Below are positions 2,018 through 60,247 of a stretch of 64,000 nucleotides of DNA, one piece after another. The DNA lies in assembly GCA_963770995.1 (NCBI GenBank), contig CAVYRS010000001.1:502815-566814 (forward strand), written 5' to 3'. The position numbers and the translations under genes were made by a program. Origin of the DNA: an uncultured Acidobacteriota bacterium. Lineage in GTDB: Bacteria; Acidobacteriota; Vicinamibacteria; Vicinamibacterales; CAVVIG01. How positions within the stretch are numbered: position 1 is the first letter of the stretch; each line of letters starts with the position of its first letter. The notes beneath the pieces were generated by a model. The model ran no database searches. It saw only the letters and a program-made list of their open reading frames with translations, and was not told the origin of the DNA.

Positions 2018-2088
2018 GTCAGAAGTCAGAAGTCAGAAGTCAGAAGTCAGAACGGTTCCGACTTCTGACTTCGTACTTCTGACTTTTT
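2018..2088 (+). terminator. heptamer-array hairpin followed by a T-run (candidate intrinsic terminator of the pirin gene; sits between convergent genes)
   Basis: GTCAGAA x5 in tandem (2018-2052), loop CGGTTCCG, then ACTTCTG/ACTTCGT/ACTTCTG (2061-2081), then ACTTTTT (2082-2088). It starts 8 nt after the pirin TAA. Confidence 0.6.
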
Positions 2089-2103
2089 CCGCGCCAGTCT
2101 GAA

Positions 2104-3024
2104 CTACTGCTGGCGAACGGTATCCTTCGCCGCCGCCTTGCCGGTGAAGCTGATGATCGCGAACTTGGGCTGCACTTCAGCGACCGCGCCGTCGCCGGTG
2201 CGCTTCTCGTCGGCGCCCAGCTTCGCGCCGGTGGCCGGGTCGACCAGCGCTTCGCCGATGTTGAAGACGGCGAACTTGTCGCCCACCTTGATCCCGCCTT
2301 CGGAGCCGAGGTTGATCCACGCACGGTTCCCTTCGACCTTGATGATCAGGCCTTCGAGCTTGCCGGACGGGTTGTTGGCCGTGCCGAGGCGCGCGAGGTA
2401 CTCGCCGGTCGTGAATTTCGCGACGAGATCCTTGGCCGTCTTCTGAATCGTCTCGCTGGCGATGCCCCACTCGGAGTCGCGGCTCAGGCTGGCGCCCTTC
2501 ATGAAGCCGCCGCCCTTCTTGACCTCGCCGTCGGCCGACAGCGACAGCACGCGCTCGGCGGTCGTCGAGTCGATCAGCCGCATGTTGATCGTCGCCTTCG
2601 ACTGGACCATGGCGCCGCCGATGCCGCGGAAGCCGCCGCCGGTCTTGTCGATGTTGAACTTGTCGATCCCGCCGAGCAGGATGTATTTGACGCCGAGGAT
2701 CTTGCCGACCTTGGCTGCTGAAGCCGGGTCCACCGCGCCCGATGCGCCGAGTCCCTGCTCCTTCAGCACGAGCGCGAGCTTGTCACGCTCGACGACGGAG
2801 AACTTGTCCGAGAGCATCTTGTTCTCGGAAAACTCGGTATCGATGGTGTTCCGCGCCGCCGGCCCCATCTCGTTGTGGAACCACCACGTGGTCGCAGCGT
2901 GGTTCTCGAACTCCCAGATTGCGATCTTGATCTTGGCCTGCGCGAACCCGGACACCGGCAGCGCGAGGACCAGGGCCACGCTGGCCGCCAGACATCGGAG
3001 CGTCTTTCTCATGATGCACCTCAT
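2104..3024 (-). CDS. CsgG-like periplasmic/outer-membrane assembly protein (curli-secretion CsgG family)
   Basis: 306 aa with a signal peptide (LAASVALVLALPVSGFAQA). CsgG-like core: AIWEFENH..., LGASGAVDPASAAKVGKILGVKYILLGGIDKFN. Its ATG (3024-3022) overlaps the TGA (3023-3021) of the upstream PP2C gene. Confidence 0.8.
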   Translation of the reverse strand: MRCIMRKTLRCLAASVALVLALPVSGFAQAKIKIAIWEFENHAATTWWFHNEMGPAARNTIDTEFSENKMLSDKFSVVERDKLALVLKEQGLGASGAVDPASAAKVGKILGVKYILLGGIDKFNIDKTGGGFRGIGGAMVQSKATINMRLIDSTTAERVLSLSADGEVKKGGGFMKGASLSRDSEWGIASETIQKTAKDLVAKFTTGEYLARLGTANNPSGKLEGLIIKVEGNRAWINLGSEGGIKVGDKFAVFNIGEALVDPATGAKLGADEKRTGDGAVAEVQPKFAIISFTGKAAAKDTVRQQ

Positions 3025-4834: not shown

Positions 4835-6120
4835 GCACGACCGCGGGCACCGGCACCCCCGCCGACAAGCTGCCGCCGACCATCGGCCGCTACCGCGTCG
4901 TCGAACGGATCGGCACCGGTGCGATGGGCATGGTGTACGCGGCCGACGACGACACGCTAGGACGGCGGGTGGCGGTGAAAGTGATGATGGGCGACCTCGA
5001 GGACGAGCCCGAAATGCGTGGGCGATTCTTCCGCGAGGCGAAGATCACGGGGCAACTCGCCCACCGCAACATCGTCACCGTGTTCGATCTCGGCGAGGAG
5101 AATCACCATCCGTACATCGTGATGGAGCTGCTCTCGGGTCTGGCGCTTCCGGAGTTTCTCGCCGCGTCCGCCAAGGTGTCGCTGGACGTCAAGATCGACT
5201 TGATGATGCAGGTCTGCGAGGGGCTCCAGGCCGCGCACAGCAAGGGCGTCGTGCATCGCGACGTGAAGCCGAGCAACCTGTTCGTGCAGCACGACGGCAG
5301 CGTGAAGATCCTCGACTTCGGCGTCGCGCGGCTGGCCTCATCGAATTTGACGAAGCACGGATTTCTGGTCGGCACGCCGGAGTTCATGTCGCCCGAGCAG
5401 GCGCGGGGCGCGGCGGTCGACGCGCGCTCGGACGTGTTCTCGGCGGCCGGCGTGTTCTATTTCATGCTCTCGGGCAATGGACCGTTCTCGTCGCCCGATC
5501 TGCCGAAGATGCTGCGCGCGGTGATTCAGGACAACCCGCCGCCGCTCACCGAGGCCCAGGCGCCTGAACCGCTCCGGCGCGTGCTGATGAAGGGACTCTC
5601 GAAGGCGCCGGCCGATCGCTATCAGCAATGCATCGACATGCAGGCCGATCTCGCCAAGGTCCGTCGCTCGGAGGGCGGTGTCGCGCACCGCTACGCCCAG
5701 GCTGCGCTGGATCGCTACCGGCAGGTCGTGGCAACCATCGAGGAGCGCCGGGCACTCGGCCAGTCGCTGGGCCGGACCGACATCGATCGTGCCGCCGCAA
5801 CCGCTCTCGCCCGGCTGGCGGCGCGGTTTCCGGAGTTCGCGAAGCACACCGATCCGCATGCGCTGATGGAGCCGTTGGATTCCGCCGTCGCTCAGGAAGC
5901 GTTGTCGTCGCTGCAGACGCGTCACAACGCCGAGCTCGCATCGCTGGAAGCATTGAAAATGGAGGCCGGCGCCGCGCGCGCGCGCGGGGCGGCAGCCGAG
6001 CAGATCGATTTGACGCTGCACCGCGGGGGCATCAACGTCGAACCGTCGGCCGATCCTGAAGCGCCCTCGTCGCTCAAGAACCGCGCCGCCGCGCTGTGGC
6101 GCAAGCTCGGGGGAACGTGA
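4831..6120 (+). CDS. Ser/Thr protein kinase (Hanks type), cytoplasmic, with helical C-terminal region
   Basis: GTG 4831 in a GTGA overlap. Motifs: GRYRVVERIGTGAMGMVYAA, VAVKVM, HRDVKPSNLF, ILDFGVAR, GTPEFMSPEQ. The first 66 codons of the track ORF 4633.. overlap the PP2C gene and are Arg-rich junk. Confidence 0.9.
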   Translation: MSTTAGTGTPADKLPPTIGRYRVVERIGTGAMGMVYAADDDTLGRRVAVKVMMGDLEDEPEMRGRFFREAKITGQLAHRNIVTVFDLGEENHHPYIVMELLSGLALPEFLAASAKVSLDVKIDLMMQVCEGLQAAHSKGVVHRDVKPSNLFVQHDGSVKILDFGVARLASSNLTKHGFLVGTPEFMSPEQARGAAVDARSDVFSAAGVFYFMLSGNGPFSSPDLPKMLRAVIQDNPPPLTEAQAPEPLRRVLMKGLSKAPADRYQQCIDMQADLAKVRRSEGGVAHRYAQAALDRYRQVVATIEERRALGQSLGRTDIDRAAATALARLAARFPEFAKHTDPHALMEPLDSAVAQEALSSLQTRHNAELASLEALKMEAGAARARGAAAEQIDLTLHRGGINVEPSADPEAPSSLKNRAAALWRKLGGT

Positions 6121-9450: not shown

Positions 9451-9457
9451 GGGATTC

Positions 9458-17019: not shown

Positions 17020-17598
17020 ATGCAACCACGAAGCCACGAAACCACGAAGAAGAACCGGTCTTTTTCGTGTCTTCGTGTTTTCGTGGTTGCGGTTGGGTTG
17101 GTGTCAGGTGGTGTAGGTACGGCGCAGACGCATCGGCTCCCGCAACCGGGCGTGCGCTACGTCCCGTCTCCACAGAGCGTCGTCGATGCGATGCTCGAGT
17201 TGGCGCACGTCACCTCAGCCGACGTCGTCTACGACCTGGGCTCTGGAGACGGCCGGATTCCGATCACTGCGGCGCAGCGCTACGGCGCGCGGGGTGTCGG
17301 CGTCGAGATCGAACGGCGGCTGGTGGCCGAGGCCGCGAGCAACGCGGCGAAGGCGCACGTGGCCGGCCTCGTCTCGTTCGTTCATGGAGACTTGTTCGAA
17401 GCCGACATCCGGCCGGCGACGGTGATCGCGATGTTCCTGCTGCCGCGGATGATCGACGAGCTCTTGCCGAAGTTCAAGCGCGATCTCCGGCCCGGAGCCC
17501 GCATCGTCTCGCACGGATACGACCTGGGTCCGAGTTGGCCGCCCGAACAGACGCGAGACGTCAGCGGCCTCACCATCCATCTCTGGACGATTCGATAG
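17020..17598 (+). CDS. class I SAM-dependent methyltransferase (start uncertain: ATG 17020 lies inside the repeat; TTG 17098 / GTG 17101 are alternatives)
   Basis: YVPSPQSVVDAMLELAHVTSADVVYDLGSGDGRIPITAAQRYGARGVGVEIERRL...FVHGDLF. The first ~24 codons (MQPRSHETTKKNRSFSCLRVFVV) are the translated hairpin element. Confidence 0.8.
   Translation: MQPRSHETTKKNRSFSCLRVFVVAVGLVSGGVGTAQTHRLPQPGVRYVPSPQSVVDAMLELAHVTSADVVYDLGSGDGRIPITAAQRYGARGVGVEIERRLVAEAASNAAKAHVAGLVSFVHGDLFEADIRPATVIAMFLLPRMIDELLPKFKRDLRPGARIVSHGYDLGPSWPPEQTRDVSGLTIHLWTIR
17022..17090. repeat. octamer-array hairpin element (CACGAAG class)
   Basis: GCAACCACGAAG-CCACGAAA-CCACGAAG, loop AAGAACCGGTC, then the inverse TTTTTCGTG-TCTTCGTG-TTTTCGTGGTTGC. 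It lies in a divergent 5' region. Confidence 0.9.
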
Positions 17599-19958: not shown

Positions 19959-19970
19959 AATAAGGCTCTC

Positions 19971-23595: not shown

Positions 23596-23645
23596 GGTCG
23601 CAACAATGATAGGGCGTATAGTCCCGTTTCGAAAGGCAGGGTTCC

Positions 23646-24215
23646 ATGAAGCGTGCCGCCTGCTTCGCGCAGGTCATCCTCGCTCTGGCCACCGCAGTCC
23701 CCCGCGCCGCCGGACCTGCCCTGAGCGCAGTCGAAGGACCGACGTTCACGCCCGGTGAAGTCGCGCCGATGTCGCTCGTCTCGTACGAGGATGTGCGGCC
23801 GTGGGCGAAGTCGATCCGCCTCAAGGTCGCCAACCGGGAGATGCCGCCGTGGGGCGCGGATCCGCGATTCGGCACCTTCAAGGACGACCGGAGCCTCACC
23901 GCGGAACAGATCGACACGATCGCGAAGTGGGTCGATGGCGGCGCACCGAAAGGCAGCGACGCGGACCTTCCGCCGGTGCCGACATTCGCCACCGGCTGGT
24001 CGCGCGGCGAGCCGGATGTCGTGATCGAGATGCCGATCGACTTCGACATTCCAGCCGAGGGCCTCGTCCCGGTGATCGACTTCTTCGCGAAGTCGCCGTT
24101 CACCGAGGACGTCTACGTGAAGGCGCTCGAAGTGCGGCCCGGAACGCCCGGCGTCGTGCATCACGCGGGCCTGTATGTCATCGAGCGGCTGCCCGACGGC
24201 GCGCAATTGGTGTAA
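23646..24215 (+). pseudogene. truncated paralogue of the haem-c/PHM-like family (lacks CxxCH and everything after the HH motif)
   Basis: 189 aa, colinear with residues ~55-215 of the 25808..27256 protein (SYEDVRPWAK, EMPPWGADP, DRSLTAEQIDTIAKWVDGGAPKG, VVHHAGLY). Where the paralogue has NNCATCHRAGEVAPM this copy reads GPTFTPGEVAPM. It stops at TAA, directly abutting a hairpin element. Confidence 0.5.
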
Positions 24216-24283
24216 GAACTTAGAAGGGCTGCGACGCCGGCCTCGTTGTCCGTCTAACTTCTGAATTCTAACTTCTAACTTCC
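24214..24283. repeat. heptamer-array hairpin element (TAACTTC / GAAGTTA class) between convergent genes
   Basis: The right arm is TAACTTC-TGAATTC-TAACTTC-TAACTTC (24255-24282). The left arm AAGAACTTAGAAGG is shorter. The loop is GC-rich. Confidence 0.7.
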
Positions 24284-25620
24284 TACAGGAAGATCGCGCC
24301 GGCGACGACTCCCACGATCATCACGGCGACGGATAACAGCGCGACCATCCGGAATCGCTGTAGCGATCCGCCGAGCAGCATCATGCACGGCAGGCTGACC
24401 GCCGGCAGCACGACCAGCAGCGCCGCGGCCGGACCGTTGATGCCAGCCTGAATCAGCTCCAACGCCATCGGGATCTCAGACCAGGTGGAGATCATGAACA
24501 ACGTGCCGGCGATGGCCGACACCAGCACGCTGGGCAGGTTGTTGCCGAATGCCGATGGCAGCGTCTGAAACACCGCGGACGCAAGCACGCTCCACACCCA
24601 CAACGTCGGCACCAGGACCAGAGCGATGCGGCCGCTCGCGTACAGCCAGGATCCAATCAGCTGCGACGCCGTCTCGACCTTGCGGCCCGCCACGATCCGG
24701 TCAAAGTCCAGCAGCCCCAGGTAGAAGCGGCTGAAGGTCCGCCTAATGGTGGACCCCACGTACGGAGCTCGATTCACCTCGTACGTGGAGTCCGCAGCCT
24801 CCATAGCGTACGTGGGGTCCGGCTTTAGCCGGACCTTCACCCCCGCGTCCCATCGGTCGGCCACTCGAGAAATGAGATACGTGACCAGCACCGTGACGAC
24901 CACGCCGGCGACGACGCGCGTCACCGCGAACGGCACCGGCAGGAGCGCGAACGCCAGGACCAGCGTCGTGACGTTCAGCATGGGGGCGCCGACGACGAAC
25001 GAGAGCAGGAAGTTCGTGGAGGCACCGCGGCGGGCGAACGAGGGCGCCATCACCGACGAGCAGCAGGAGCAGAACGGCTGCGGCAGCGCAAACAGCGCGC
25101 CGAACAGCGAACCGGTGAAGCCGTCGCGGACGAAGTACGGCTTGAAGTACACGGGCAGGATTGTCAGCGCCAGCCCGGAAATCAGAATACCCAGCATCGT
25201 CGCGTGCCAGACGTTGAACAGGTAGCTGGTCGCCTGCGCGAACGGCCGCCACCATGCGGTCACGCCGAACGCGTGCAACCAGTCCATGTTGATGCGGCCG
25301 GACGCCATCGAGCGCGCCGCCGGCACGCCGCGATACGCGAACAGATCGATCACCAGCAGCGCCAGGATCGCAAACGTCAGCGGCTTGAGGTATCGCGCCG
25401 TGGGGGCGTCCTGCGCCTCGCGCATCCGCAGGCCGCGAAAGGACACGAGCATGCCGACGACGCCCGCCGCGAACAGTGGCACCTGCCACGGGTTGAACAC
25501 GTAGAACAGCGTGCGGACGGGATATGCGGCGAAGAGGAACCCGCGACGAAAATCGACGAGCGCCAGCAGGGCAACGCCCAGGCACACGACGAAGGCCATC
25601 GCCAACCGGCGGGCTGTCAC
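24283..25620 (-). CDS. permease of the UPF0718/DUF318 (ArsP-like) family, carrying an in-frame palindromic-element insertion
   Basis: 445 aa, polytopic. Signature: ALPQPFCSCCSSVMAPSFARRGAS. The central loop contains VRLKPDPTYAMEAADSTYEV, encoded by the repeat at 24782-24840. Confidence 0.85.
   Translation of the reverse strand: MTARRLAMAFVVCLGVALLALVDFRRGFLFAAYPVRTLFYVFNPWQVPLFAAGVVGMLVSFRGLRMREAQDAPTARYLKPLTFAILALLVIDLFAYRGVPAARSMASGRINMDWLHAFGVTAWWRPFAQATSYLFNVWHATMLGILISGLALTILPVYFKPYFVRDGFTGSLFGALFALPQPFCSCCSSVMAPSFARRGASTNFLLSFVVGAPMLNVTTLVLAFALLPVPFAVTRVVAGVVVTVLVTYLISRVADRWDAGVKVRLKPDPTYAMEAADSTYEVNRAPYVGSTIRRTFSRFYLGLLDFDRIVAGRKVETASQLIGSWLYASGRIALVLVPTLWVWSVLASAVFQTLPSAFGNNLPSVLVSAIAGTLFMISTWSEIPMALELIQAGINGPAAALLVVLPAVSLPCMMLLGGSLQRFRMVALLSVAVMIVGVVAGAIFL
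24782..24840. repeat. palindromic element (one intact copy plus one degenerate copy) in frame inside the permease ORF
   Basis: ACGTGGGGTCCGGCTTTAGCCGGACCTTCAC (24810-24840), preceded by the degenerate TACGTGGAGTCCGCAGCCTCCATAGCGT. Confidence 0.85.
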
Positions 25621-27692: not shown

Positions 27693-27756
27693 CAACGCAG
27701 AACACGCGGAACACGCAGAGCCGTTTTTCTCTGCGCGTTCTGCGAATTCTGCGTGC
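27693..27756. repeat. nonamer-array hairpin element (ACGCAGAAC class) in a divergent 5' region
   Basis: ACGCAGAAC-ACGCGGAAC-ACGCAGAG, loop CCGTTTTT, then CTCTGCGCG-TTCTGCGAA-TTCTGCGTG. Confidence 0.85.
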
Positions 27757-29386: not shown

Positions 29387-29405
29387 AGAACCTCCAGATC
29401 GATCA

Positions 29406-29475
29406 GCCACGAAAGCACGAAATCACGAAAATCATCCTGTACACATCACGTTTCGTGTTTTCGTGTTCTCGTGGC
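29406..29475. repeat. octamer-array hairpin element (CACGAAA class)
   Basis: GCCACGAAA-GCACGAAA-TCACGAAA ... GTTTCGTG-TTTTCGTG-TTCTCGTGGC. It lies between the MFS stop (29481) and the NHL start (29386) on the - strand. Confidence 0.9.
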
Positions 29476-29480
29476 AGATC

Positions 29481-30712: not shown

Positions 30713-31314
30713 CGGCTCGTCGGGGCCGCAACGTCCTTGCGCCACCAGGGGTTGCCGTAATTGCGATACGGCCCGCCATCCACCGACAGCGTCGTCGCCA
30801 CCTTGTAGTTGAGCGGCGACAGCAGGCGCAGCGCGTGCTTGATGCGAAGCGTCTTGCCGGCGTGGTTGAACGGCGAGCTCTCGAAGTAGATGTTGTAGTA
30901 GCCGCCCAGATCGCCGCCGATCGTGCCGATCTGCAAGTAGGTGAAGCCGCGGCTGTCGGTCGCCTGCCGCGCGAGCGCTTTCTGCTCCTTGTGGTACGCG
31001 ATCAGCTCACGAAGCTTGAAGGCGCCGCCGGGCCCGACGGCGTCCGTGTTCGCCTCGTAGAATCGCCCGTCGACCGGCTTGTAGACCGTTGTGCCGGTGA
31101 TGCGGCCCGCCGGACCGAGCGGCCCCTCGGGCACGTCCCACTCGAACGTCCACTTGCCGGGAAAGTACTCGTCGAAGTTGAACGGCGGCAGCGCGTCCTC
31201 GGATTTCGTCGGCCGGCCAAGATCGGGCATCTGGCCCTTCGGGAGCGGAGTCTGCGCAGCGAGCGCCCCAGCCGCCAGAACTACTCCCAGTGCCGGCAAC
31301 AATAGATCTGCCAC
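30709..31314 (-). CDS. exported hypothetical protein
   Basis: GTG 31314 gives M-ADLLLPALGVVLAAGALAAQTP (signal peptide). Its TGA overlaps the ATG of the MFS gene (ATGA at 30709-30712). The start codon lies within the terminal GCCACGAAG of a hairpin element. Confidence 0.65.
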   Translation of the reverse strand: MADLLLPALGVVLAAGALAAQTPLPKGQMPDLGRPTKSEDALPPFNFDEYFPGKWTFEWDVPEGPLGPAGRITGTTVYKPVDGRFYEANTDAVGPGGAFKLRELIAYHKEQKALARQATDSRGFTYLQIGTIGGDLGGYYNIYFESSPFNHAGKTLRIKHALRLLSPLNYKVATTLSVDGGPYRNYGNPWWRKDVAAPTSR

Positions 31315-31374
31315 GAAGACACGAAAACACGAAGAAGACTTCCTTGGGTTTCGTGCTTTCGTGATTTCGTGTCT
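31310..31374. repeat. octamer-array hairpin element (CACGAAG class)
   Basis: GCCACGAAG-ACACGAAA-ACACGAAG ... TTTCGTG-CTTTCGTG-ATTTCGTGTC. Confidence 0.9.
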
Positions 31375-44196: not shown

Positions 44197-44274
44197 AATG
44201 CAACCACGAAGACACGAAGGCACGAAAAAGACATGTTGTTCTTCTTCGTGGTTTCGTGACTTCGTGGTTGCATT
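44197..44274. repeat. octamer-array hairpin element with AATGCAACCACGAAG termini
   Basis: AATGCAACCACGAAG-ACACGAAG-GCACGAAA ... CTTCTTCGTG-GTTTCGTG-ACTTCGTGGTTGCATT. Its last 2 nt overlap the TAA of the hydrolase gene. It spawns the spurious ORF 44198.. (MQPRRHEGTKKT). Confidence 0.9.
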
Positions 44275-45274
44275 AGAGATACTTCTGGAACCAGGCCACT
44301 GCTGCCTCGACTGCGGCGTCGAAAGCCTGCGGCGACGTGAGACCATGCGTCGCGCCGGGGATTGTGGTCACGCCATTCGGTCCCTTCAACAGCTTCGAGG
44401 CAGCGACCGCGTTCGTGGCGTTGTTCACCTTCGCATCCTTCTCCGCGACGACGAACAGGATGGCAGTTGTCTGCGGAATCTGATCGACGTACCAGAACGG
44501 ATGGTACTCGGCCAGGGCGAGCTTCGCTTCCTCGTCGTTCATCACCGCGCCTGCGGCCGCGGTTGCGGGCGCCTGTCCGCTTCGCGCCAGCCGCACCATC
44601 GCCGCCTGCTGCGCCGACGTCGGCTTCATCGCCTTGCGCGGCGTGTCCTGGCCGTCGATGATCGGCGTCTGCGCAACCGCCGCCTTGACACGAAAGTCGA
44701 CTCCGGCGGTCACCACAACATGACCGCCGGCGAGGCCGGCGCCCCAGACACCGATCCGCGCGCGATCCACGCCCGGTTCGCCCTGCAGGTACGAGATTGC
44801 GTTGCGGATATCGAGGATCTGCGCGTCAGGGATCGATCGCCCGCGGCGGACTCGCATTTTCGCCGTGTGCTGTGAGAAACGCAGCCGGTCGTCCCACCGA
44901 AGCGGTTCGGCCAGATAGAGAAAGCCGCCGCTCTTGCCCCAGCCGCGATAGTCGATGGCCATCGCGACCATGCCGCGCGCGGCCAGCTGCGCCGCGTACT
45001 TGTCGATCGACGCGGCCGTCTCGCCCGCTGCCGGCGCGAGGACGACAGCGGGGGCCTTGCTGTCGGCGGTGAATCCCTTCGGCGTATAGATCTTCGCGTA
45101 GCACTGCACGGCTTCGCTGAAGAACTTCACCTCTTTCGAGCTGACGCCGTCGGGTGGGCTTCCGGCTTTCGCGGGTTGTGCAATCGCCGTACTCGAGATA
45201 AGCCACGAAGACACAAAGACACGAAGAACCTGTAGCCTTCGTGCCTTCGTGCCTTGGTGGCACATCGAAGTCAT
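44273..45274 (-). CDS. alpha/beta-hydrolase fold protein (dienelactone-hydrolase-like), nucleophile position Gly
   Basis: ATG 45274 forms an ATGA overlap with the stop of the upstream paralogue. Signal peptide MTSMCHQGTKARRLQVLRVFVSSWLISSTAIAQPA. VAMAIDYRGWGKSGG. The elbow reads GVWGAGLAGG instead of G-x-S-x-G. Asp (VAEKDAKV) and His (GATHGL) are present. Confidence 0.8.
   Translation of the reverse strand: MTSMCHQGTKARRLQVLRVFVSSWLISSTAIAQPAKAGSPPDGVSSKEVKFFSEAVQCYAKIYTPKGFTADSKAPAVVLAPAAGETAASIDKYAAQLAARGMVAMAIDYRGWGKSGGFLYLAEPLRWDDRLRFSQHTAKMRVRRGRSIPDAQILDIRNAISYLQGEPGVDRARIGVWGAGLAGGHVVVTAGVDFRVKAAVAQTPIIDGQDTPRKAMKPTSAQQAAMVRLARSGQAPATAAAGAVMNDEEAKLALAEYHPFWYVDQIPQTTAILFVVAEKDAKVNNATNAVAASKLLKGPNGVTTIPGATHGLTSPQAFDAAVEAAVAWFQKYL
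45202..45261. repeat. octamer-array hairpin element lying entirely inside the signal-peptide codons of the hydrolase gene
   Basis: GCCACGAAG-ACACAAAG-ACACGAAG-AACC TGTAG CCTTCGTG-CCTTCGTG-CCTTGGTGGC. It is translated on the - strand as HQGTKARRLQVLRVFVSSW. Confidence 0.9.
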
Positions 45275-46965: not shown

Positions 46966-47041
46966 AAAGCAACCATGAAGTCACGAAGTCACGAAGAAAA
47001 CCTATTGAGGCTTCGTGTTTTCGTGTCTTCGTGGTTGCATT
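46966..47041. repeat. octamer-array hairpin element with GCAACC...GGTTGCATT termini between convergent genes
   Basis: AAAGCAACCATGAAG-TCACGAAG-TCACGAAG ... GCTTCGTG-TTTTCGTG-TCTTCGTGGTTGCATT. Confidence 0.9.
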
Positions 47042-49506: not shown

Positions 49507-49529
49507 CTTGGAGCGCTGATTATAGCGTT

Positions 49530-49692
49530 ACGAGAACACGGAGGTTTTCGGAGGGCACGGTTTTAGACGGAGGCACGAAGGCACGGAGGAAAACGGACAG
49601 AGACAGCGATGGGCAGTTCGACGGGTCGAACTTCTGTCTTCTTCGTGCGTCTTCGTGTCTCCGTTCCTCCGTGTGAGATCCGTGCGCTCCGC
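49530..49692. repeat. ~160-bp composite hairpin (CACGGAGG/CACGAAGG arms) with a central perfect palindrome
   Basis: The left arm at 49530-49606 contains CACGGAGG, GACGGAGG, CACGAAGG, CACGGAGG, ACAGAGACAG. The centre is AGTTCGAC-GG-GTCGAACT. The right arm at 49634-49690 reads TCTGTCTTCTTCGTGCGTCTTCGTGTCTCCGTTCCTCCGTG... Confidence 0.8.
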
Positions 49693-51477: not shown

Positions 51478-51482
51478 AATCG

Positions 51483-51609
51483 ACGTGGGGTCCGCCTTCA
51501 CGTGGACCAAGGTCCGGCTAAAGCCGGACCCCACGTACAGCCAGGTCCGGCTAAAGCCAGACCCCACCAAAATACGTCTTCCTCGTGTTTTCGTGTTTTC
51601 GTGGTTGCC
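51483..51609. repeat. cluster: three palindromic-element copies next to a solo arm of a CACGAA-type hairpin
   Basis: ACGTGGGGTCCGCC..., AAGGTCCGGCTAAAGCCGGACCCCACGTA (51509-51537), CAGGTCCGGCTAAAGCCAGACCCCACC (51541-51568), then CTTCCTCGTG-TTTTCGTG-TTTTCGTGGTTGCC (51577-51609). No partner arm is present. Confidence 0.8.
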
Positions 51610-51617
51610 TTTGGTCG

Positions 51618-52187: not shown

Positions 52188-52294
52188 GGTCGAAGCCAAG
52201 ATAGCACGAACAAAAAAGGGCTGAGGCGTTTCCACCCCAGCCCTTCGACGAACCACGAACGACGAACGAAGGTCGAAGACCTACGAACGTCGCC

Positions 52295-55200: not shown

Positions 55201-55417
55201 GCCGGAGGTTTTCAATCCTGTACGCCCCGTTCGAGTCGGTGGTGACCGACCGCACCCTTTCGATGAGCGCGTCGCTAGCGGCTTCCACGGTCACGCCCGG
55301 AAGCACGGCGCCGGTGGTGTCCTTGACCACGCCGGCGAACGCGCTCTGTGCGCGGGCGGTCGTCGGCCACGCCAGCAGACACGCTAGCGCAAATACCGAC
55401 AGCAGTAGTCTTCTCAT
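52295..55417 (-). CDS. TonB-dependent receptor-like outer-membrane barrel with CarboxypepD_reg domain
   Basis: 1040 aa. Signal peptide, then GVVKDTTGAVLPGVTVEAASDALIERVRSVTTDSNGAYRIENLRPGIYSLTF. C-terminal ...LRLAAVVNW. GGAGGA upstream. Confidence 0.9.
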   Translation of the reverse strand: MRRLLLSVFALACLLAWPTTARAQSAFAGVVKDTTGAVLPGVTVEAASDALIERVRSVTTDSNGAYRIENLRPGIYSLTFSLPGFSSVKKDAIELPSNFTSTINGDLKVGTVEETVTVSGESPVVDVQTNIKAQVLSRDVLDAVPSAHTIQSVGQLVVGVSLTAPDVGGSQAMQQTYFTVHGLGAAQTTVTIDGMIMNGLQGDGAIQSYLNEGANQEMVYQTGGGTVDSPTGGVKINLVPKEGGNRFSGSLFEGYESSKMQSNNLTPKLESLGVRTVDKIGTYNDTNFTQGGPLKKDKMWFFASFRLFTVNKPIANTLVSDGTPAGIQRCQAALAGRGGALCPQGVDPQHQYSYLGRLTWQISPRNKLSGYYDRVLKDRGAAMAPGDDQTTSSVLWNSPLYTTNSVKWTSTVSSRLLIEGGYSGNIERYNNLYQPGIEKPYGSPEWFSNARHVDAGAGLTWKASALQNNVYPDRYNAQASATYVTGTHSVKVGFQDSWGPFNRASYANGDLYQNYVQVNGVETPQTVTVFATPARWRDRLNASLGIFAQDIWTLNRLTLTYGGRWEYVNEQVDGQPAQSGRFANIPAYGDKQMPIWKSFSPRTGVVYDLQGNGKTALKFGFNKFMAAATTTLAELYDPGAGNIINATLPWTDKNLDDVAQGARGCAFATDPTCEINFASLPSNFGTVSLAEPDPGLTRPYVLQGNTGITRELFQGVSVSFDWFHNVSKGFMERNNVNRPGTLNADGTVTNASYRPVTVFSPIDGTPITVFDVASAAVGTLAAKNIDTNDPGLKQTYNSFEMGFNARLPRGARLSGGFGTERTIAYTCTAAASNPNFLIRIGGANYCDQENSGIPWRTGIKLVGMVPLPWYGLVFAGAYQGLPGYVLGTSALTAGGAGAPNFANISGLASQLTVTAATRYTACPGNSASQGCVVGALIAPGALSTLTVPLDAPNTLLTPRLNQLDLSVSKRITVGRFRIDPKVDVFNALNSSDFFTARSTTYTLTGVGATPTAVNGSSGSYLLPGSIIQGRLLRLAAVVNW

Positions 55418-55531: not shown

Positions 55532-57574
55532 TTACGGAAACTTGGATCCGGGCATGCGGTAGGGTCGCCCCTCTTCATACATCTGCAATCGCTCCCGGAA
55601 GCGGGCCGCCACCTCGTGCGCCCCCGCCGCCGCCGCCGTGTCTACCCCAGCCCTGGCGGTTTTCACGGCTTCGGTGAAGCGTCCGGCAGCGGCATACGCC
55701 GCCGCCAGCGCGTCGAGCGATGCGACATCGCGTCCCTCGGTGACACTCACCGCCCGTTCTCCCAGCGAGATCGCTTCGGCGGCGTTGCGAAGGGCGGGAT
55801 CGGCAGCGGTCGCCCGGATCCAGGCCAGCCCGGCCAGCGCCGGCGCGAAATCGGGTGTCAGCGTCAGCGCGCTCCTGAGCACACCCATGGCCTCGGCCGT
55901 TCGTCCCTGCGCCGACAACAGAAGGCCGAGATTCGCGCGCGCCTGGACGTTGTCCGGACGCAAGGCGATGGCTCGGCGATAGTGCTCCAGAGCCGGCTCC
56001 GTGCGTCCGAGCATGTGAAGCACGGCCCCCAGATTGTTGTGCGCCTGCGCGTAGTCGGGGTCGATGCCGAGCGCGGCGTCGAATGCCAACACGGCTTGTT
56101 CGCGCAACCCGCGCACCGACAACGCGATTCCGAGGTTGTAGTGCGTCTGCGCGGAGCGCGGATCGAGCCTGAGCGACTCGCTGTATTCGGCAATCGCCTC
56201 GTCGTACTGCCCGCCCTCGAGGTACAGATTCGCGACCGCGTCGTGGCGCAGCGGATCGTCGGGCGCATTGCGCAGGAGTTTGGAGTACGCGGCGAGATCG
56301 TCGGCACGCGCCTTACTGCGAACGTCCGTAGCCAGGCGCTGATGATCTGCGCCGGTCCGCGCTGCCACCTGCAGCCACAGATCGCCCATTTCGTCGGTCG
56401 TGTTCTGCCCCCACACGACGCGCACCGGCGGCTGATGCGGATTGCGCACGTTCTCGGCGGAGTTGTCGTAGGTGTAGCGCATTGCAACCGTGGTCCCCTT
56501 GGGCAAGGCGATCGGCGACGCGAAGCGGTAGACGTCCTGCCACCGGAAATCCCAGTCGTCGATGGCGATGAGCGGCCGCGTGGACCCGTCGGGCAGGGTC
56601 GCGTTCGCCTCCATGCGGCGCGCCAGGTTGTGCGCGTGCGGCTGCACGGCCAGCACGTCGACGTCGACGGGCAGCGCGTACCGATCGGTGATGACGTGCG
56701 CGCGATCGCCGGCGGGAACGTCGATTGTCTCGCTGCCGAGACGAAGGCCGACCGGCGTGCGTGTAGGCGGCGCGTCCGTCAAGAACAGCCCGATAGTGGG
56801 CTGGACCGGCTCGGGCTTCCCGGTCGGTTGCAGGTGCAGCTGGACGACGAGGTCGCTTCCCGGATCGAGCCGCCATTGCATGCCGTCAGGCGACGCGTGC
56901 GGCGCCTGACCCGGGGTCCAGCCGAGGAGTTGCCCTTCCGGATAGCGCGCCTCGACCACCATGCTTCCCGTGTATCCCGGCTCGGCGTCGCGGCGATCGA
57001 GCTGGCGCGACGACTGTGTTCGATCGATCCCAAGGTTCGCGTGGTGCACGACCCGGGCGTTGCCCGGCTGGAACTCAATCGCGCGCACGTAGCGGGGCGA
57101 GGTGAGTGGAATCGGAATCACGAACGTGCGGAACACATCGGGTCCATCCGCGCGCACGGTATACGCCTCGGCCATGCGGACGACGAGGTCGGGCGTGCCG
57201 AGCTGCCAGCCATCGGCGAATCTCGGGGGCGGCGAGAGGTCGGAGTGATCGCCTTCGACGGCGCCGGCGGCAATCCAGCGCTGCAATGTGTCGAGCTCGG
57301 CATCTGAGAGTCGCCGTTCGTTTTGAAAGTTACCCTTTCCCGCCACGGGCTTCCACGGCGGCATCACACGCCGCGCGGTCACCGCCGCAATCTGCGTCAG
57401 CCGCCTCTTCACATCGTCATACGTGAGCAGGCTGAAGGGACCGATCTCGCCGGGGCGATGGCAGTTCGCGCAGCGGGACCAGATGATCGGTGCGATGTTT
57501 TTGGTGAACGTGAGGCGCGGTTGAGCCGACACAGAGGGGACGGAGAACACGGAGACAAACAGCCACAGAGACAC
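55532..57574 (-). CDS. haem-c/PHM-like copper monooxygenase-fold + C-terminal TPR protein (intact paralogue; start uncertain, GTG 57574 proposed)
   Basis: WSRCANCHRPGE (CxxCH), VVHHANLG, VVQLHLQP, QPHAHNLA, WDFRWQ, NTTDEMGDLWLQV, then about 7 TPR units. The hydrophobic signal segment SLWLFVSVFSVPSVSAQP is encoded by a repeat arm. The track ORF 5' extension to 57994 crosses repeats. Confidence 0.75.
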   Translation of the reverse strand: MSLWLFVSVFSVPSVSAQPRLTFTKNIAPIIWSRCANCHRPGEIGPFSLLTYDDVKRRLTQIAAVTARRVMPPWKPVAGKGNFQNERRLSDAELDTLQRWIAAGAVEGDHSDLSPPPRFADGWQLGTPDLVVRMAEAYTVRADGPDVFRTFVIPIPLTSPRYVRAIEFQPGNARVVHHANLGIDRTQSSRQLDRRDAEPGYTGSMVVEARYPEGQLLGWTPGQAPHASPDGMQWRLDPGSDLVVQLHLQPTGKPEPVQPTIGLFLTDAPPTRTPVGLRLGSETIDVPAGDRAHVITDRYALPVDVDVLAVQPHAHNLARRMEANATLPDGSTRPLIAIDDWDFRWQDVYRFASPIALPKGTTVAMRYTYDNSAENVRNPHQPPVRVVWGQNTTDEMGDLWLQVAARTGADHQRLATDVRSKARADDLAAYSKLLRNAPDDPLRHDAVANLYLEGGQYDEAIAEYSESLRLDPRSAQTHYNLGIALSVRGLREQAVLAFDAALGIDPDYAQAHNNLGAVLHMLGRTEPALEHYRRAIALRPDNVQARANLGLLLSAQGRTAEAMGVLRSALTLTPDFAPALAGLAWIRATAADPALRNAAEAISLGERAVSVTEGRDVASLDALAAAYAAAGRFTEAVKTARAGVDTAAAAGAHEVAARFRERLQMYEEGRPYRMPGSKFP

Positions 57575-57859
57575 GGAGACACAGAGGGGCGCGCCGCAGG
57601 AGATTCGGCGGGAGCGCCGCGATGCGGCGCACTGTGGCCGAACCGATCGGAAACGTGAACCTGGAACATCCGAGAGGTTCACGTTTCCGGTCGGTTCGAC
57701 CACAGCGCCCGGCCTGCTCCGCAGGCCGTCCCGCCGAACTGCGAGCGCGCCTCGCGTTCCGCGCCACCCGAACTCTCTTGTTTCCACGCTGTCTTCTCTG
57801 TGTCTCTGTGTCTCCGTGGCTGAATCACTCCGTGAGCTCTGCTTCCTCCGTGTCCTCCG
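57528..57859. repeat. nested composite inverted repeat in a divergent 5' region
   Basis: The outer arms are built of ACACAGAG/ACACGGAG units (57528-57589) and their inverse CTCTGTGT/CTCCGTG units (57775-57859). The inner 25-bp inverted repeat is CCGAACCGATCGGAAACGTGAACCT / AGGTTCACGTTTCCGGTCGGTTCGA (~57638-57700), with 1 mismatch. Confidence 0.8.
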
Positions 57860-57937
57860 CGCTGGTTTAGCATAGCGCTGTTGCCGCCCAAGAAAGTCGT
57901 TCGACCGCTCGCGCTGGAAACCCGCGTCGATCGCCCG

Positions 57938-60187
57938 ATGCTGCTGCCGGCGGTCGCGATCTTCGCGATCGCGTTCGGCATCCGGCTCGTGCACGTGTTG
58001 CAGATTCGATCCGCGCCGTTCTTCTCCGTCCTGATGGGCGACTCCCGCGGGTACGACGAGTGGGCACAGCGGATCGCGGCCGGCGACTGGTGGGGGACGG
58101 AGGTCTTCTATCAGGCGCCGCTGTATCCGTACTTCCTCGGCGTTCTGTACTCGGTCGCGGGCCGGTCGCTGCTGCTCGTGCGGCTCGTCCAGGCGGCGAT
58201 CGGGTCGGCGTCGTGCGTGCTGGTCGCCCTCGCCGCCGCGCGATTGATCTCGCGCCGCGCGGGCATTGCAGCCGGACTGATCCTGGCGTTGTACGCGCCC
58301 GCGATTTTCTTCGACGGTCTGCTGCAGAAGTCGGTGCTCGACGTGTTCTTCGTCAGCCTCGCGCTGTTATTGATCGCCCGGATCGAGACGGTCCGCCTAA
58401 AGGCGGACCCCACGTACGAGAAAAGGCCGGTAGGTGGGGTCCGGCTTCAGCCGGACCTACATTGGCTCTTGCTCGGCCTCGCGATCGGCGGGCTGAGCCT
58501 GACGCGCGAAAACGCGCTCGTCTTCGTCGTCGTTCTGCTCGCGTGGGCGCTGATGCGTTCATGGCCTTTGCGGTCTCCGCGGTCTTTGCGTTCACCTGCT
58601 GCGCTCCTCCTGGGCCTCGCGCTGGTTCTCGTTCCAGTCGCGACGCGCAACACGCTCGTCGGCGGCGGCTTCTTCATCACGACGTCGCAGTTCGGCCCCA
58701 ACTTCTACATCGGCAACAACTCGAAAGCAGACGGGACGTACGCCTCGCTGCGCTTCGGGCGAGGCGCGCCGGAATACGAACGGCAGGACGCCACCGAGCT
58801 CGCCGAGCTCTCGTTGGGGCACCGGCTCCCGCCTGGAGAGGTGTCGAGCTACTGGACCGATCGCGCGCTGCAGTACATCACCTCACAACCGGGCGCGTGG
58901 GCACGGCTGATGGCGAGGAAGGCCGCGCTGCTGGTAAACCGGGCGGAAATGGTGGACACCGAAGATCAGGCGACCCACGCCGAGTGGTCGCTGCCGCTCC
59001 GCCTGCTCGGGCCCGTGGCGCATTTCGGCGTGCTCGTTCCACTCGCGATGCTCGGCATCGTCGCGACGTGGCCCCAGCGATCGCGGCTCGGTGTCCTGCT
59101 CGCCCTGCTGGTCGTCTACGCCGCGAGCGTGGTGATGTTCTACGTCTTCGCGCGGTATCGATATCCGCTGGTGCCGATGCTGATCGTGTTTGCGGCCGTC
59201 GCGCTCGTCGAATCACCGCGATTCGCGCGATCGCTCACGAAGGGCTCTACCACGGAGGACACGGCCACAAACGGAGGACACAGAAAACCAAAGGATTCCG
59301 TGCCCGCCGTTCGCCACAGTGCCCTCCGTGGTGAAGCCGTGTGGACGGTCGTGGCGATTGTCGGGACCGCGGTCCTGACCAATTGGCCGCTGCTGTCGAC
59401 GAACAACATGCGCGCGGTCACCGAGAACAATCTCGCCGCCGCGTTGCAGGCCACCGGCCGCCTCGACGAGGCCGAAGCACACTATCGCCGCGCCGTCGAT
59501 TTTCGTCCCGACTACGCGCCCGCCTACAGCAACCTCGGAACCGTGCAGCGCGCGCGCGGGCGGCGCGCTGACTCCATCGCCTCGTACGAGCAGGCGCTGC
59601 GCCTGCAGCCTGATTATCCAGACGCGCACTACAACCTCGCCAACGCGCTCACGGACGACGGGCGATCCGCGGAGGCGATCCAGCACTTTCAGATCGCGTT
59701 GCGGTCCGTGCCCGGATCAGCCGAGGTGCACAACAACCTTGGCATCGCGCTCGCGTCGAGCGGGAAACGCGACGAGGCGATCGCGGAATTCGAAGCTGCC
59801 CTACGCGCCGATCCGGCGGCGGCGAAGGCGCATCGCAACCTCGGCGACGCGCTGCTGGCAGCCGGGCGCGGACCGGAAGCGCTGACCCACTTCAAACGCG
59901 CCACCGAACTGGCGCCAGACGAGGGCTCGTTCCACTACGACTACGGGAGCGTGCTGCTCGAGGCGGGACGTCCGCAGGACGCCGCGGCCGAATTCCGCGC
60001 CGCGCTGAAGTCGATGCCCCGCGCACCCGAGGTGCACAACAACCTGGGCATCGCGCTCGGATCGCTGGGGAAGCTGGACGAGGCGATCGAGCAGTTTCAG
60101 GAGGCGCTGAGCATCAAGCCGGACTTCGCTGATGCGCGCAGGAATTTGACAATGGCTGGCGAGGCACGAAAACGCAAAACACCCTAG
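57938..60187 (+). CDS. GT39/ArnT-like membrane glycosyltransferase fused to C-terminal TPR domain, with several repeat-derived in-frame segments
   Basis: ATG 57938. N-terminal polytopic part: FFSVLMGDSRGYDEWAQRIAAGDWWGTEVFYQAPLYPYFLGVLY. The C-terminus has about 7 TPR units (AHYRRAVDFRPDYAPAYSNLG...). In-frame repeat segments lie at 58389-58461, 58567-58593 and 59250-59331. Confidence 0.85.
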   Translation: MLLPAVAIFAIAFGIRLVHVLQIRSAPFFSVLMGDSRGYDEWAQRIAAGDWWGTEVFYQAPLYPYFLGVLYSVAGRSLLLVRLVQAAIGSASCVLVALAAARLISRRAGIAAGLILALYAPAIFFDGLLQKSVLDVFFVSLALLLIARIETVRLKADPTYEKRPVGGVRLQPDLHWLLLGLAIGGLSLTRENALVFVVVLLAWALMRSWPLRSPRSLRSPAALLLGLALVLVPVATRNTLVGGGFFITTSQFGPNFYIGNNSKADGTYASLRFGRGAPEYERQDATELAELSLGHRLPPGEVSSYWTDRALQYITSQPGAWARLMARKAALLVNRAEMVDTEDQATHAEWSLPLRLLGPVAHFGVLVPLAMLGIVATWPQRSRLGVLLALLVVYAASVVMFYVFARYRYPLVPMLIVFAAVALVESPRFARSLTKGSTTEDTATNGGHRKPKDSVPAVRHSALRGEAVWTVVAIVGTAVLTNWPLLSTNNMRAVTENNLAAALQATGRLDEAEAHYRRAVDFRPDYAPAYSNLGTVQRARGRRADSIASYEQALRLQPDYPDAHYNLANALTDDGRSAEAIQHFQIALRSVPGSAEVHNNLGIALASSGKRDEAIAEFEAALRADPAAAKAHRNLGDALLAAGRGPEALTHFKRATELAPDEGSFHYDYGSVLLEAGRPQDAAAEFRAALKSMPRAPEVHNNLGIALGSLGKLDEAIEQFQEALSIKPDFADARRNLTMAGEARKRKTP
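58389..58461. repeat. two palindromic-element copies in frame inside the glycosyltransferase ORF
   Basis: ACGGTCCGCCTAAAGGCGGACCCCACGTA (58389-58417) and TAGGTGGGGTCCGGCTTCAGCCGGACCTACA (58431-58461), translated TVRLKADPTYEKRPVGGVRLQPDLH. Confidence 0.9.
59250..59331. repeat. degenerate CACGGAGG-type hairpin element in frame in the linker between the GT39 and TPR domains
   Basis: CCACGGAGGACACGGCCACAAACGGAGGACACAG, loop, CCGTGCCCGCCGTTCGCCACAGTGCCCTCCGTGG. About 24 of 34 arm positions are complementary. Translated STTEDTATNGGHRKPKDSVPAVRHSALRGE. Confidence 0.75.
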
Positions 60188-60247
60188 AGTGCTTCACGAA
60201 CAAAGCACCCTAAGGTGCTGTTCGAGAAGAGCACTCTAGAGTGCTGG
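60184..60247. repeat. multi-hairpin element of alternating GTGCT / AGCAC blocks between convergent genes (candidate bidirectional terminator)
   Basis: CTAGAGTGCTTCACGAACAAAGCACCCTAAGGTGCTGTTCGAGAAGAGCACTCTAGAGTGCTGG. It contains the perfect palindrome AGCACTCTAGAGTGCT and two further GTGCT...AGCAC stems. Confidence 0.75.

Follow-up and report, generated by a model that had tools for sequence, protein, structure and literature searches.

Inverted pairs of short tandem-repeat arrays, mainly at gene ends, in an uncultured Acidobacteriota bacterium and beyond

The 64,000-nt stretch of an uncultured Acidobacteriota bacterium analysed here (contig CAVYRS010000001.1 of assembly GCA_963770995.1, hereafter the window) holds palindromic elements, most of them between genes, in which a tandem array of a 7-9-nt unit is followed by a loop and by an array of the inverted unit. 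This kind of repeat is real, changes fast, is widespread in bacteria and has barely been described. Tentatively, and at a likelihood somewhat below even, we regard the elements as inverted pairs of long simple sequence repeat (SSR) arrays, with 7-9-nt units in 2-5 copies per arm, which form local palindromes at the level of DNA and are tolerated mainly at gene ends.

Architecture and turnover of the tandem-arm hairpins

A reading of the sequence alone had assigned 14 loci of the window to one architecture. Tandem arms of 7-9-nt units combined with a hairpin were found at 11 of them, while 24214-24283 and 51577-51609 are one-armed, the latter a solo arm, and 60175-60247 has a different build (Table 1). 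Tandem Repeats Finder (TRF) confirmed head-to-tail arrays at these loci, with periods of 7, 8 and 9 nt and 2.5-5.3 copies, and the hairpin scans found arrays of complementary units close together and in convergent orientation. The complementarity of the arms is likewise real when measured against dinucleotide-shuffled controls. A gapless inverted-repeat scan of the window returned 12 hairpins with a score of at least 14, seven of them with periodic arms, against means of 0.475 hairpins and 0.125 periodic-arm hairpins in the same scan of 40 shuffles. When folded as single-stranded DNA, 10 of 11 loci gave z-scores from -3.9 to -9.9, with none of 200 shuffles folding as well, and the compound locus at 49525-49700 gave -5.6; the one-armed locus 24214-24283 folds no better than its shuffles (z +0.11).

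Units with a CACGAAR core are present at 8 of the 14 loci. The termini AATGCAAC...GTTGCATT, seen earlier in three copies, are common to three or four copies in the window and recur in other Acidobacteria metagenome-assembled genomes (MAGs; L018, L024, L034, L117; numbers of this kind denote the compared genome, metagenome and viral loci). No named repeat family had been recognised from the sequence, and none in Rfam fits: the whole window had no match at the gathering score, and what appeared at E<=5 were microRNA-precursor models alone, all below threshold. A tRNA scan of the window found none, and neither 20 kb of the window nor a single element had a match in a plasmid collection. A full-text literature search on CACGAAGGCACGAAG retrieved no paper, and one on CACGAAG together with tandem and intergenic retrieved primer-type matches only.

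Orthologous sites differ strongly in what they hold. Locus L118 (ENA ERZ25039588 contig_103299) is about 92% identical and covers the window from 10 to 33 kb. At the position of element 17022 it has lost 23 nt of the left arm, and at 31310 it carries an unrelated GC-rich hairpin resembling repetitive extragenic palindromic (REP) sequences. At 27695 a hairpin of 9-nt period is kept between flanks of about 91% identity, with units CGCAAAGAC/CTTTGCG where the window has CGCAGAAC/TTCTGCG; the units have thus changed in concert on both arms. Furthermore, elements 24211 and 29401 exactly border gene segments that are absent from L118, namely 23611-24283, of which 24211 is the right border, and 29326-30706. 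The counterpart positions in L118 are 12701-12708 and 18513-18606; window segment 20974-21906 is also absent there, and at window position 25641 the relative contains about 770 additional nt. In L118, gene calling gives many short fragments at places occupied in the window by single long genes (e.g., the PQQ and PEGA/PDZ genes), which suggests frameshift errors in that assembly, so that its small indels need care, while nucleotide comparisons are unaffected.

Likewise, at the pirin locus one relative of about 80% identity has a gap of 5 nt (L119), and another has a different tandem-arm hairpin with GGTTCAAA/GGTTCGCG units (L120). The widest comparison was made downstream of the DUF3089 gene, using 80 metagenomic orthologous loci and relatives at 62-87% protein identity. 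Directly after the DUF3089 stop codon, various relatives carry arrays of CACGAAG, CACAGAG, GTGTCAGAC, GGTCGAGTG, GGATTTGA, AATTCTTA, GAAGTCA, GCTAGGG, GTTCGGC/GTTCTGG or TGAAGTC, some solo and some inverted, and others have a REP-like hairpin or no gap at all. In L175 and L178, GGTCGAGTG-type arrays of unequal length follow the same stop codon. L209 contains a full palindrome made of mirrored blocks of stepwise-variant units; of its relatives, L212 (about 89% identical) retains the left arm only, L208 (95%) the right arm only, and L217 (93%) shows a REP-like hairpin in its place. In L119, L218 and L222 the gaps are about 0-40 nt long and lack a hairpin. Since orthologous sites can be one-armed or empty, the hairpin is dispensable. 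These comparisons show a process in which two-armed arrays are created locally, vary and are lost one arm at a time, and they show neither a conserved structured RNA nor copies of one transposon.

Some arrays resemble the sequence next to them. The TGAAGTC unit of L236, whose array lies just after the stop codon at 2300, begins with that very stop codon, and the GCGAACC unit of L120 (2740-2860) matches the terminal sequence of the gene beside it (TGCGAACCGT). Such arrays, seemingly built from local sequence, hint at amplification in situ.

In the sequence-only reading, the agreement between arms was taken as covariation preserving structure. Both observations behind it stand, as the two arms of a locus match each other and unit sequences differ between loci; a selected RNA structure does not follow from them. 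In tandem gene contexts, mismatches compatible with G·U pairing number 28 on the sense and 34 on the antisense strand (p=0.53), so they are not confined to the transcribed strand, and this strand-specific test for RNA-level selection detects no sense-strand bias. Together with the one-armed state of close relatives (L118, L212, L208) and the turnover of units, the missing G·U bias means that matching arms are not evidence of selection on RNA. Template switching between the arms of inverted repeats homogenises, perfects and expands them, and is thus a published source of arm symmetry that needs no selection (PMC5941160, PMC13100816). The covariation noticed earlier lies between different unit classes and not within a homologous family. 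More generally, when the arms of a DNA palindrome covary, this does not have to reflect selection on an RNA structure.

Position, orientation and spread of the elements

Gene contexts in the window were read from coding-potential profiles. Convergent gaps hold five elements (2016, 24211, 44197, 46966, 60175), divergent gaps three (17022, 27695, 57528) and co-directional minus-strand contexts five (29401, 31310, 45202, 49530, 51577), and one element lies clearly inside an open reading frame (ORF; 59250). This is close to the earlier tally, which had counted four tandem cases and two inside ORFs. On the other hand, the statement that the elements fill most intergenic gaps was too strong: counting gaps of at least 30 nt, elements are present in 5 of the 7 convergent gaps, 3 of the 8 divergent gaps and 4 of the 15 tandem gaps. 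Three of the other tandem gaps contain GC-rich REP-like hairpins and one a canonical terminator (52246-52215). The elements typically span the whole gap, from 0-20 nt past a stop codon to just before the ribosome-binding site or the stop codon of the next gene.

Across all loci scanned, 101 periodic-arm hairpins were found, 41 of them in tandem, 16 in convergent and 13 in divergent gaps and 17 apparently inside ORFs, according to crude gene calls. Available gaps number 245, 79 and 89, respectively, so that element contexts roughly track the supply and show no strong positional bias. With the same crude gene calls, the median distance is 30 nt to the stop codon and 66 nt to the start codon, so that, within intergenic DNA, the elements lie closer to where the upstream ORF ends than to the start that follows.

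The arms follow an orientation rule. Of the 59 CRCRRAG hairpins, 52 have the purine-rich arm first (p=1e-9), as have 31 of the 42 other periodic hairpins (p=0.003), whereas among non-periodic hairpins only 63 of 112 do. An independent tally of TRF arrays gave 76 against 13; only this orientation tally was used, as the TRF count of solo versus paired arrays is inflated by GC-rich coding repeats. Because a palindrome is the same on both strands, a transcript from either side would start with the purine-rich arm and end with the pyrimidine-rich one.

The purine arm has no T and the pyrimidine arm no A, and therefore the arms contain no stop codon in any frame and can occasionally persist inside permissive protein linkers and N-termini. 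Read in frame, element 59250-59331 codes for the linker ..TTEDTATNGGHRKPKDSVPAVRHSALRG.. joining transmembrane helices in a GT39-TPR protein, whose homologs (58-73% identity) have, at the same hypervariable spot, related TTEDTE../..SVR..LR peptides, peptides of the kind that translated REP-like elements give, or nothing. The hairpin inside this ORF is retained in the DNA of three relatives (L123-L125). In the gap orthologous to 57528-57859, upstream of the gene, CGCAGAG-type hairpins are present in L124 and L125 and a REP-like element in L123. Arrays of phage contigs are also translated, where they form the charged n-region of signal peptides.

The linker of the GT39(PMT_2)-TPR protein (window 59111-59470; proteins P0030-P0060) is a hot spot for different translated repeat elements, with peptides of TTEDTE.., ARGFSPAIAGLKACATSLR and EPVEGRARG types and some homologs that have none. 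Just upstream of the start of this gene, four relatives at about 60% protein identity share a conserved box, GCATGCTGCGTTAGCATACCAACGTTGCC (GCTGGTTTAGCATAGCGCTGTTGCC in the window), located immediately 3' of the variable hairpins (window 57835-57880; L123 ~5840-5870; L124 ~262-290; L125 ~5852-5880). The box may be a promoter or leader element.

Beyond the window, a scan of 185,579 species genomes for three consecutive CACGAARN units found at least 117 loci, where by our own calculation about two are expected by chance from database size alone. Among the loci listed are Acidobacteriota, Gemmatimonadota, Planctomycetota, Verrucomicrobiota, Nitrospirota, Bacteroidota, several proteobacterial classes, Streptomyces, Myxococcota and others, with G+C contents from 37 to 72%. 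Many of those listed share the build (CACGAAGN)3-4, a spacer of 5-130 nt or more and (CTTCGTGN)3, often with the related units CACGGAG, CACAGAG, CACAAAG and CGCGGAG nearby or nested. Related cores (CACGGAG, CACAGAG, CGCAGAG, CACAAAG) are spaced 8 or 9 nt. The termini TCAC(C)ACGAAG...GTGA recur in several phyla and in phage contigs. Loops are often long, from tens to hundreds of nucleotides; the spacers of long-loop elements are not homologous to each other and have no shared cargo, and many contain further nested hairpins. Nested arrays were found in L045, L097, L132, L209 and at 57528-57859 of the window.

Units are highly diverse. The periodic-arm hairpins have period 8 in 64 cases, 7 in 15 and 9 in 12, with many unrelated unit types, and a census of 570 kb of related DNA counted 190 arrays in which nearly all unit types are singletons and CACGAAR is the commonest. 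Within the CACGAAG class, nearly every base pair is invariant among 12 elements from several genomes; this class is conserved in sequence and not only in structure. In 48 octamer hairpins from the window and other genomes, pairing at core positions 1-7 ranges from 89 to 99%. The eighth base, which had been described as usually unpaired, pairs with its partner on the other arm in 66%, so that this description is only partly right, and T stands there in only 8%. It equals the eighth base of the next unit in 35%, about chance by our estimate, which indicates that adjacent units are not fresh slippage copies and that the core is maintained, while the pairing across the loop indicates that the arms are coupled even at this free position.

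Viral contigs contain 36 CACGAAR loci, some contigs with 2-4 copies. Permuted-octamer controls in the same contigs gave 5, 15 and at least 120 loci, the last from one redundant phage clade, and the specificity of the core among viruses is therefore only modest. Several CACGAAG arrays per phage or giant-virus contig were seen in L143, L145, L154 and L159, which lie on one 41.5-kb contig, in L133/L139 on a 241-kb contig, and in L146. Viral contigs also include long one-directional (TCACGAAG/TTACGAAG)n arrays in genomes of 31-33% G+C, and the solo arrays of phage contigs are positioned at or just upstream of start codons.

Table 1. Repeat elements of the window, with paired TRF arrays given by their positions on either side of the loop
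Position	Strand	Structure	Context	Paired TRF arrays	Evidence
2016..2085		7-nt-unit hairpin (AAGTCAG)x5.3, loop, (TTCTGAC)x4.3, then TTTTT	convergent gap between pirin gene (1108-2010 +) and gene 2104-3024 (-)	2016/2056	scan score 21; z -7.07
17022..17090		8-nt-unit hairpin GCAAC(CACGAARN)x3, loop, (YTTCGTGN)x3 GTTGC	divergent gap	17026/17064	TRF, scan, z -7.03
24211..24287		one-armed array (TCTAACT)x4.3 at 24253-24282 with 16-nt partial inverted partner	convergent gap, filled		TRF
27695..27754		9-nt-unit hairpin, ACGCAGAAC-type / TTCTGCG	divergent gap	27695/27730	TRF, scan, z -5.86
29401..29480		hairpin (CACGAAAN)x3 / (TTTCGTGN)x3	between two minus-strand genes; spans the gap, beginning 1 nt past the upstream stop and ending just short of the next gene's Shine-Dalgarno sequence	29408/29451	TRF, scan, z -6.69
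31310..31374		hairpin (CACGAARA)x3 / (TTTCGTGN)x3	tandem minus-strand gap	31312/31349	TRF, scan, z -4.23
44197..44274		best-formed copy, AATGCAAC(CACGAAGN)x3, loop, (YTTCGTGN)x3 GTTGCATT	convergent gap; ends at stop codon of gene 44273-45214 (-)	44205/44245	TRF, scan, z -9.94
45202..45261		hairpin (CACRAAGA)x3 / (CTTCGTGC)x3	between two minus-strand genes	45200/45235	TRF, z -4.71
46966..47041		hairpin GCAAC(CAYGAAGT)x3 / (YTTCGTGT)x3 GTTGC	convergent gap; 6 nt past stop of DUF3089 gene (47047-48198 -)	46977/47011	TRF, scan, z -7.32
49530..49692		compound element: left CACGGAG/CACGAAG, right CTCCGTG/CTTCGTG, inner hairpin (AGTTCGACgggTCGAACT)	tandem minus-strand gap		z -5.59
51577..51609	-	solo pyrimidine arm (TCGTGTTT)x2.6, then GGTTGC	codons 5-15 (N-terminal coding region) of gene 50101-51621; encodes MTTKGNHENTKTRGRR		TRF
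57528..57859		nested palindrome of ~330 nt; outer arrays CACAGAG/CACGGAG x~6 and CTCTGTG/CTCCGTG; interior GC-rich inverted repeat and central hairpin with 31-bp arms (57632-57705)	divergent gap	57547/57795	TRF, scan; RNA fold -203.6 kcal/mol
59250..59331	+	9-nt-unit hairpin, CACGGAGGA-type	inside GT39(PMT_2)+TPR gene (57881-60187)		z -3.93
60175..60247		different build: three 16-nt mini-palindromes (AGCACCCTAGAGTGCT-like) folding into one hairpin	convergent gap		TRF period 26; z -6.74

The window has a G+C content of 62-71%. Among its gene products are TonB-type receptors with CarboxypepD_reg, PEGA proteins, Ser/Thr kinase-PD40 proteins and TPR proteins, and the nearest named homolog found for its proteins was a protein of an Acidobacteria MAG. 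The gene content and this homolog, together with the MAGs that have the same element termini, suggest an Acidobacteriota chromosome of Vicinamibacteria-like type. Genes 44273-45214 and 45271-45885 (both on the minus strand), which are separated by element 45202-45261, both match Peptidase_S9, the upstream one over its first 51 residues only, and may represent a split or rearranged hydrolase gene; a small REP-like hairpin (45946-45973) lies just upstream of 45271-45885. The mini-palindromes of 60175-60247 (AGCACTCTAGAGTGCT, AGCACCCTAAGGTGCT) recall the half-sites of the CIRCE (HrcA) operator, GCACTC/GAGTGC. Their spacing is 2-4 nt rather than 9, and they are located between convergent gene ends.

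Possible origins of the elements

The architecture and its excess over chance, the turnover, the symmetry at DNA level, the spectrum of positions and the translation of some elements are shown by the observations above; the mutational mechanism behind the elements, and any role they have as RNA, we infer. If the elements are inverted pairs of SSR arrays, an array of a short unit and its inverted copy would arise together in a permissive gap, adjoining a stop or start codon. Replication slippage would then change the number of units, and intrastrand template switching between the arms would keep both alike. Repair after breakage at the centre of the palindrome is a possible further step, which would also yield nested arrays. 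The palindrome would later decay through the loss of one arm or be replaced, and it would persist mainly where extra DNA is harmless, i.e., at gene ends. When transcribed from either side, such an element would form a long hairpin with a pyrimidine-rich 3' arm. It probably behaves in a REP-like manner, as a barrier or insulator at transcript ends, either as a side-effect or with a weak benefit; the position of the elements, the pyrimidine-rich 3' arm and the REP-like hairpins that replace them in relatives make such an effect plausible.

Several observations weigh against this account. No mutation event was directly observed. The orientation rule is not accounted for by a local mutational origin alone, and such an origin, if purely local, does not explain the dominance of CACGAAR at the 14 loci and its commonness in the related DNA; a generic mutational process does not predict the recurrence of this core at the loci of many phyla or its near-invariance. 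The spread and invariance of CACGAAR and the orientation rule together imply a sequence-specific partner or horizontal spread. In addition, hairpins of this class stand upstream of the GT39-TPR gene in three of four relatives at about 60% identity, and the hairpin inside that ORF is retained in all four, which hints at some benefit. Finally, the occupancy of gaps, highest between convergent genes, and the proximity to stop codons also fit a role in termination.

An alternative which we consider rather unlikely is that the elements are selected as factor-independent bidirectional terminators or as hairpins protecting 3' ends. They would replace terminators made of a hairpin and a U-tract, which are scarce in this GC-rich genome, and the periodic pyrimidine-rich 3' arm would give a weak RNA:DNA hybrid at each unit. 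Canonical terminator-like sites are indeed not enriched over shuffles (16 vs 11.9; 11 vs 11.0), for which reason canonical terminators were also rejected as alternative occupants of gene ends. The only clear canonical intrinsic terminator in the 40 kb scanned is 52215-52246 (minus strand); its stem of 14 bp, GAAGGGCTGGGGTGgaaaCGCCTCAGCCCTTT, runs into TTTGTT, and it lies just downstream of gene 52295-55417, which encodes a TonB-type receptor. A termination role also agrees with the way in which the elements hug stop codons, within 0-20 nt in the window and at the median of 30 nt across phyla, with the occupied convergent gaps, and with the orientation rule, by which the 3' arm of the RNA is U/C-rich in both directions. 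GC-rich REP-like hairpins occur in the same niches in relatives. Element 45202 has four A·C mismatches, which equal G·U on the minus-strand RNA, and no G·T, fitting the transcribed minus strand. The inner part of 17022-17090 together with the next unit scores as terminator-like, and 2016-2085 is followed by TTTTT, the only element with T5 directly after it.

Against this stands the absence of an overall sense-strand wobble bias. Most copies have no U-tract, and loops are often long. A consensus scan for a short GC-rich stem with a loop of 3-8 nt and a U-tract caught only inner parts, in 17022-17090 and at 49615-49638. The share of elements found in divergent promoter gaps (13 of 70 elements) is about what the number of such gaps would give (89 of 413 gaps), and one-armed survivors and empty orthologous gaps show that the hairpin can be dispensed with.

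It is also conceivable, if unlikely, that the CACGAAR+N palindromes and their CACGGAG, CACAGAG and CGCAGAG relatives form a pan-bacterial superfamily maintained by dedicated, undescribed sequence-specific machinery. The candidates may be an enzyme extending both 3' ends of a break or opened hairpin with the purine-rich unit, or a domesticated transposase analogous to the REP-associated tyrosine transposases (RAYTs). Such machinery would account for the core shared across phyla, the purine-first rule, the birth of elements with two arms and nested inner arrays, and their presence in phages.

The arrays could instead be binding sites of a protein that reads a heptamer with a spacing of 0-2 nt, the inverted arrangement representing two converging protein arrays, which we regard as improbable. 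The binder could be a duplex-DNA-binding protein of ribbon-helix-helix (RHH) type or a single-stranded RNA- or DNA-binding one (OB-fold, cold-shock-domain). RHH repressors read tandem sites of 7-8 bp, and OB-fold and cold-shock-domain proteins cover about 7 nt; the heptads of the omega repressor and the 8-bp metboxes of MetJ, which are read as tandem or inverted arrays, offer an established precedent. The near-invariance of CACGAAR on both arms across loci and phyla with a free eighth base agrees with such a reader, as do the maintenance of a periodic core whose adjacent units are not fresh duplicates (35%), the related cores at 8- or 9-nt spacing, and the solo arrays just upstream of start codons in phage contigs. 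However, units at orthologous sites can be unrelated, so that no single protein could read all of them, and one locus per about 5 kb would require a very abundant binder. Spacing that varies among 7, 8 and 9 nt argues against cooperative binding to duplex DNA, and no candidate gene was found among the window proteins scanned.

Slightly less credence still is given to non-autonomous mobile elements, similar to MITEs (miniature transposable elements with inverted repeats) or REPINs, mobilised in trans by a transposase that reads the heptamers and the termini (GCAAC.../TCAC...), with horizontal transfer as the cause of the cross-phylum spread. Sub-families do share termini, namely AATGCAAC...GTTGCATT and TCAC(C)ACGAAG...GTGA, and presence or absence is polymorphic between relatives. 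One permissive protein linker holds different repeat elements in different homologs, and there are nested arrangements and copies in phage contigs. No target-site duplication was found, however, either between filled L120 and empty L119 or at the window copies, where 17022, 44197 and 46966 lack flanking direct repeats. Among the inspected loci, no transposase gene with an array on either side was noticed, although no systematic search was made, and no RAYT (Y1 transposase) gene flanked by repeats was found among the scanned proteins of the window. The diversity of units, with one-off types, is unlike the product of one transposase, and the mirrored blocks of stepwise variants within one array (L209) suggest local growth. 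CsrA GGA sites, Rho rut sites, Chi, DNA uptake sequences, Type III restriction sites, invertons and transposon excision footprints do not fit the combination of unit diversity and inversion. The roles first suggested for the elements (REP/MITE-like repeats, terminators or stabilisers, protein-binding arrays) thus remain the right shortlist, with none of them proven.

If SSR arrays are indeed paired in this way, one poorly studied palindrome-making process would produce a large share of the non-coding DNA in many soil and aquatic bacteria, including Acidobacteriota, Gemmatimonadota, Planctomycetota and Verrucomicrobiota. As the arms lack stop codons, gene callers extend ORFs through them, and the elements then add peptides such as TTEDTE.. 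or ..HENTKTRGRR.. to real proteins. The elements also mark borders of gene-content differences and change faster than their flanks. The heptamer core and the purine-first rule could lead to a new DNA-processing or RNA-binding activity.

Comparison with known systems

Like the REP, BIME (bacterial interspersed mosaic element) and REPIN sequences, the tandem-arm elements are abundant, imperfect intergenic palindromes at gene ends that give hairpins in transcripts and turn over quickly, and both kinds occupy the same niches. REP sequences are palindromes of 20-40 nt that carry a conserved head (GTAG or CGTC), lack internal periodicity and are linked to RAYT transposases (PMC3116915, PMC3733652), whereas the tandem-arm elements start with GCAAC or TCAC followed by units and have no such head. 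In the window, the GTAG head occurs only in a separate, second family of GC-rich REP-like palindromes (19969-20024, 24732-24839, 45946-45973, 51510-51560, 58390-58457, 63389-63470), whose copies read GGTCCGCCTAAAGGCGGACCCCACGTAC...GTACGTGGGGTCCGGCTTTAGCCGGACC, some with GTAG/CTAC heads (TCGTAGCGCGGGCC...GGCCGCCCTACGA). Two of these, 24732-24839 and 58390-58457, lie inside continuous ORFs where coding potential dips.

The elements resemble bacterial MITEs such as the Correia elements in being short and non-coding, in their terminal inverted symmetry, in presence/absence differences and in their occasional in-frame position within genes. They differ from them in that there is no target-site duplication, no parent insertion sequence was noticed (with no systematic search made), and the units change from locus to locus. 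With bidirectional intrinsic terminators they share a hairpin between convergent genes that has an A/purine-rich 5' and a U/pyrimidine-rich 3' flank on both strands. In place of a short GC-rich stem with a U-tract, the elements have stems of 25-35 bp with regular mismatches and often long loops, and they are also present in promoter regions and inside ORFs. Similarity to RHH operator arrays (omega heptads, MetJ metboxes) lies in tandem sites of 7-8 bp, direct or converging; such operators comprise few sites at specific promoters with strict spacing, in contrast to probably hundreds of loci per genome and many unit sequences in the present case.

Another related group are the long SSRs with units of 5-11 nt (Mrazek et al. 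2007), including the heptameric short tandemly repeated repetitive (STRR) sequences of cyanobacteria and the TAACTGA repeats of Beggiatoa. In the account given in PMC4679880, they are over-represented in the intergenic DNA of scattered lineages, with heptamers prominent, polymerase slippage is proposed as their source, and some lie just upstream of starts. The short-unit tandem intergenic arrays described here and the phage solo arrays just upstream of starts agree with that account, in which long SSRs appear as direct arrays; the two inverted arms, the purine-first rule and the match between arms are features of the present elements.

The closest precedent for the architecture comes from Xanthomonas. 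Arrays of the heptamers GGGAATC and GGGGA(C/T)T, usually in about four copies and about 90% intergenic, were described in Xanthomonas and Nostoc (Rehm et al. 2015, PMC4692102). Each Xanthomonas genome contains 70-75 convergent inverted GGGAATC pairs, capable of forming a stem-loop and with the purine-rich strand first; the arrays lie near the end of the upstream ORF, differ in length and sequence between close species, and were interpreted as quadruplex-forming, with their function left open (PMC4692102). The elements of the window share with them the 7-nt tandem units, the intergenic position near the upstream ORF end, the convergent purine-first pairs and the variation in length. On the other hand, the window units (CACGAAG, GTCAGAA, ACGCAGAAC) have no G-tracts and thus no quadruplex potential, and divergent gaps, depleted of arrays in Xanthomonas (PMC4692102), are not depleted of the present elements. 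Unlike the Xanthomonas arrays, the elements described here have 8- and 9-nt periods as commonly as 7-nt ones, combine many unit types in one genome, share a CACGAAR core across phyla and are, in some cases, translated as part of proteins.

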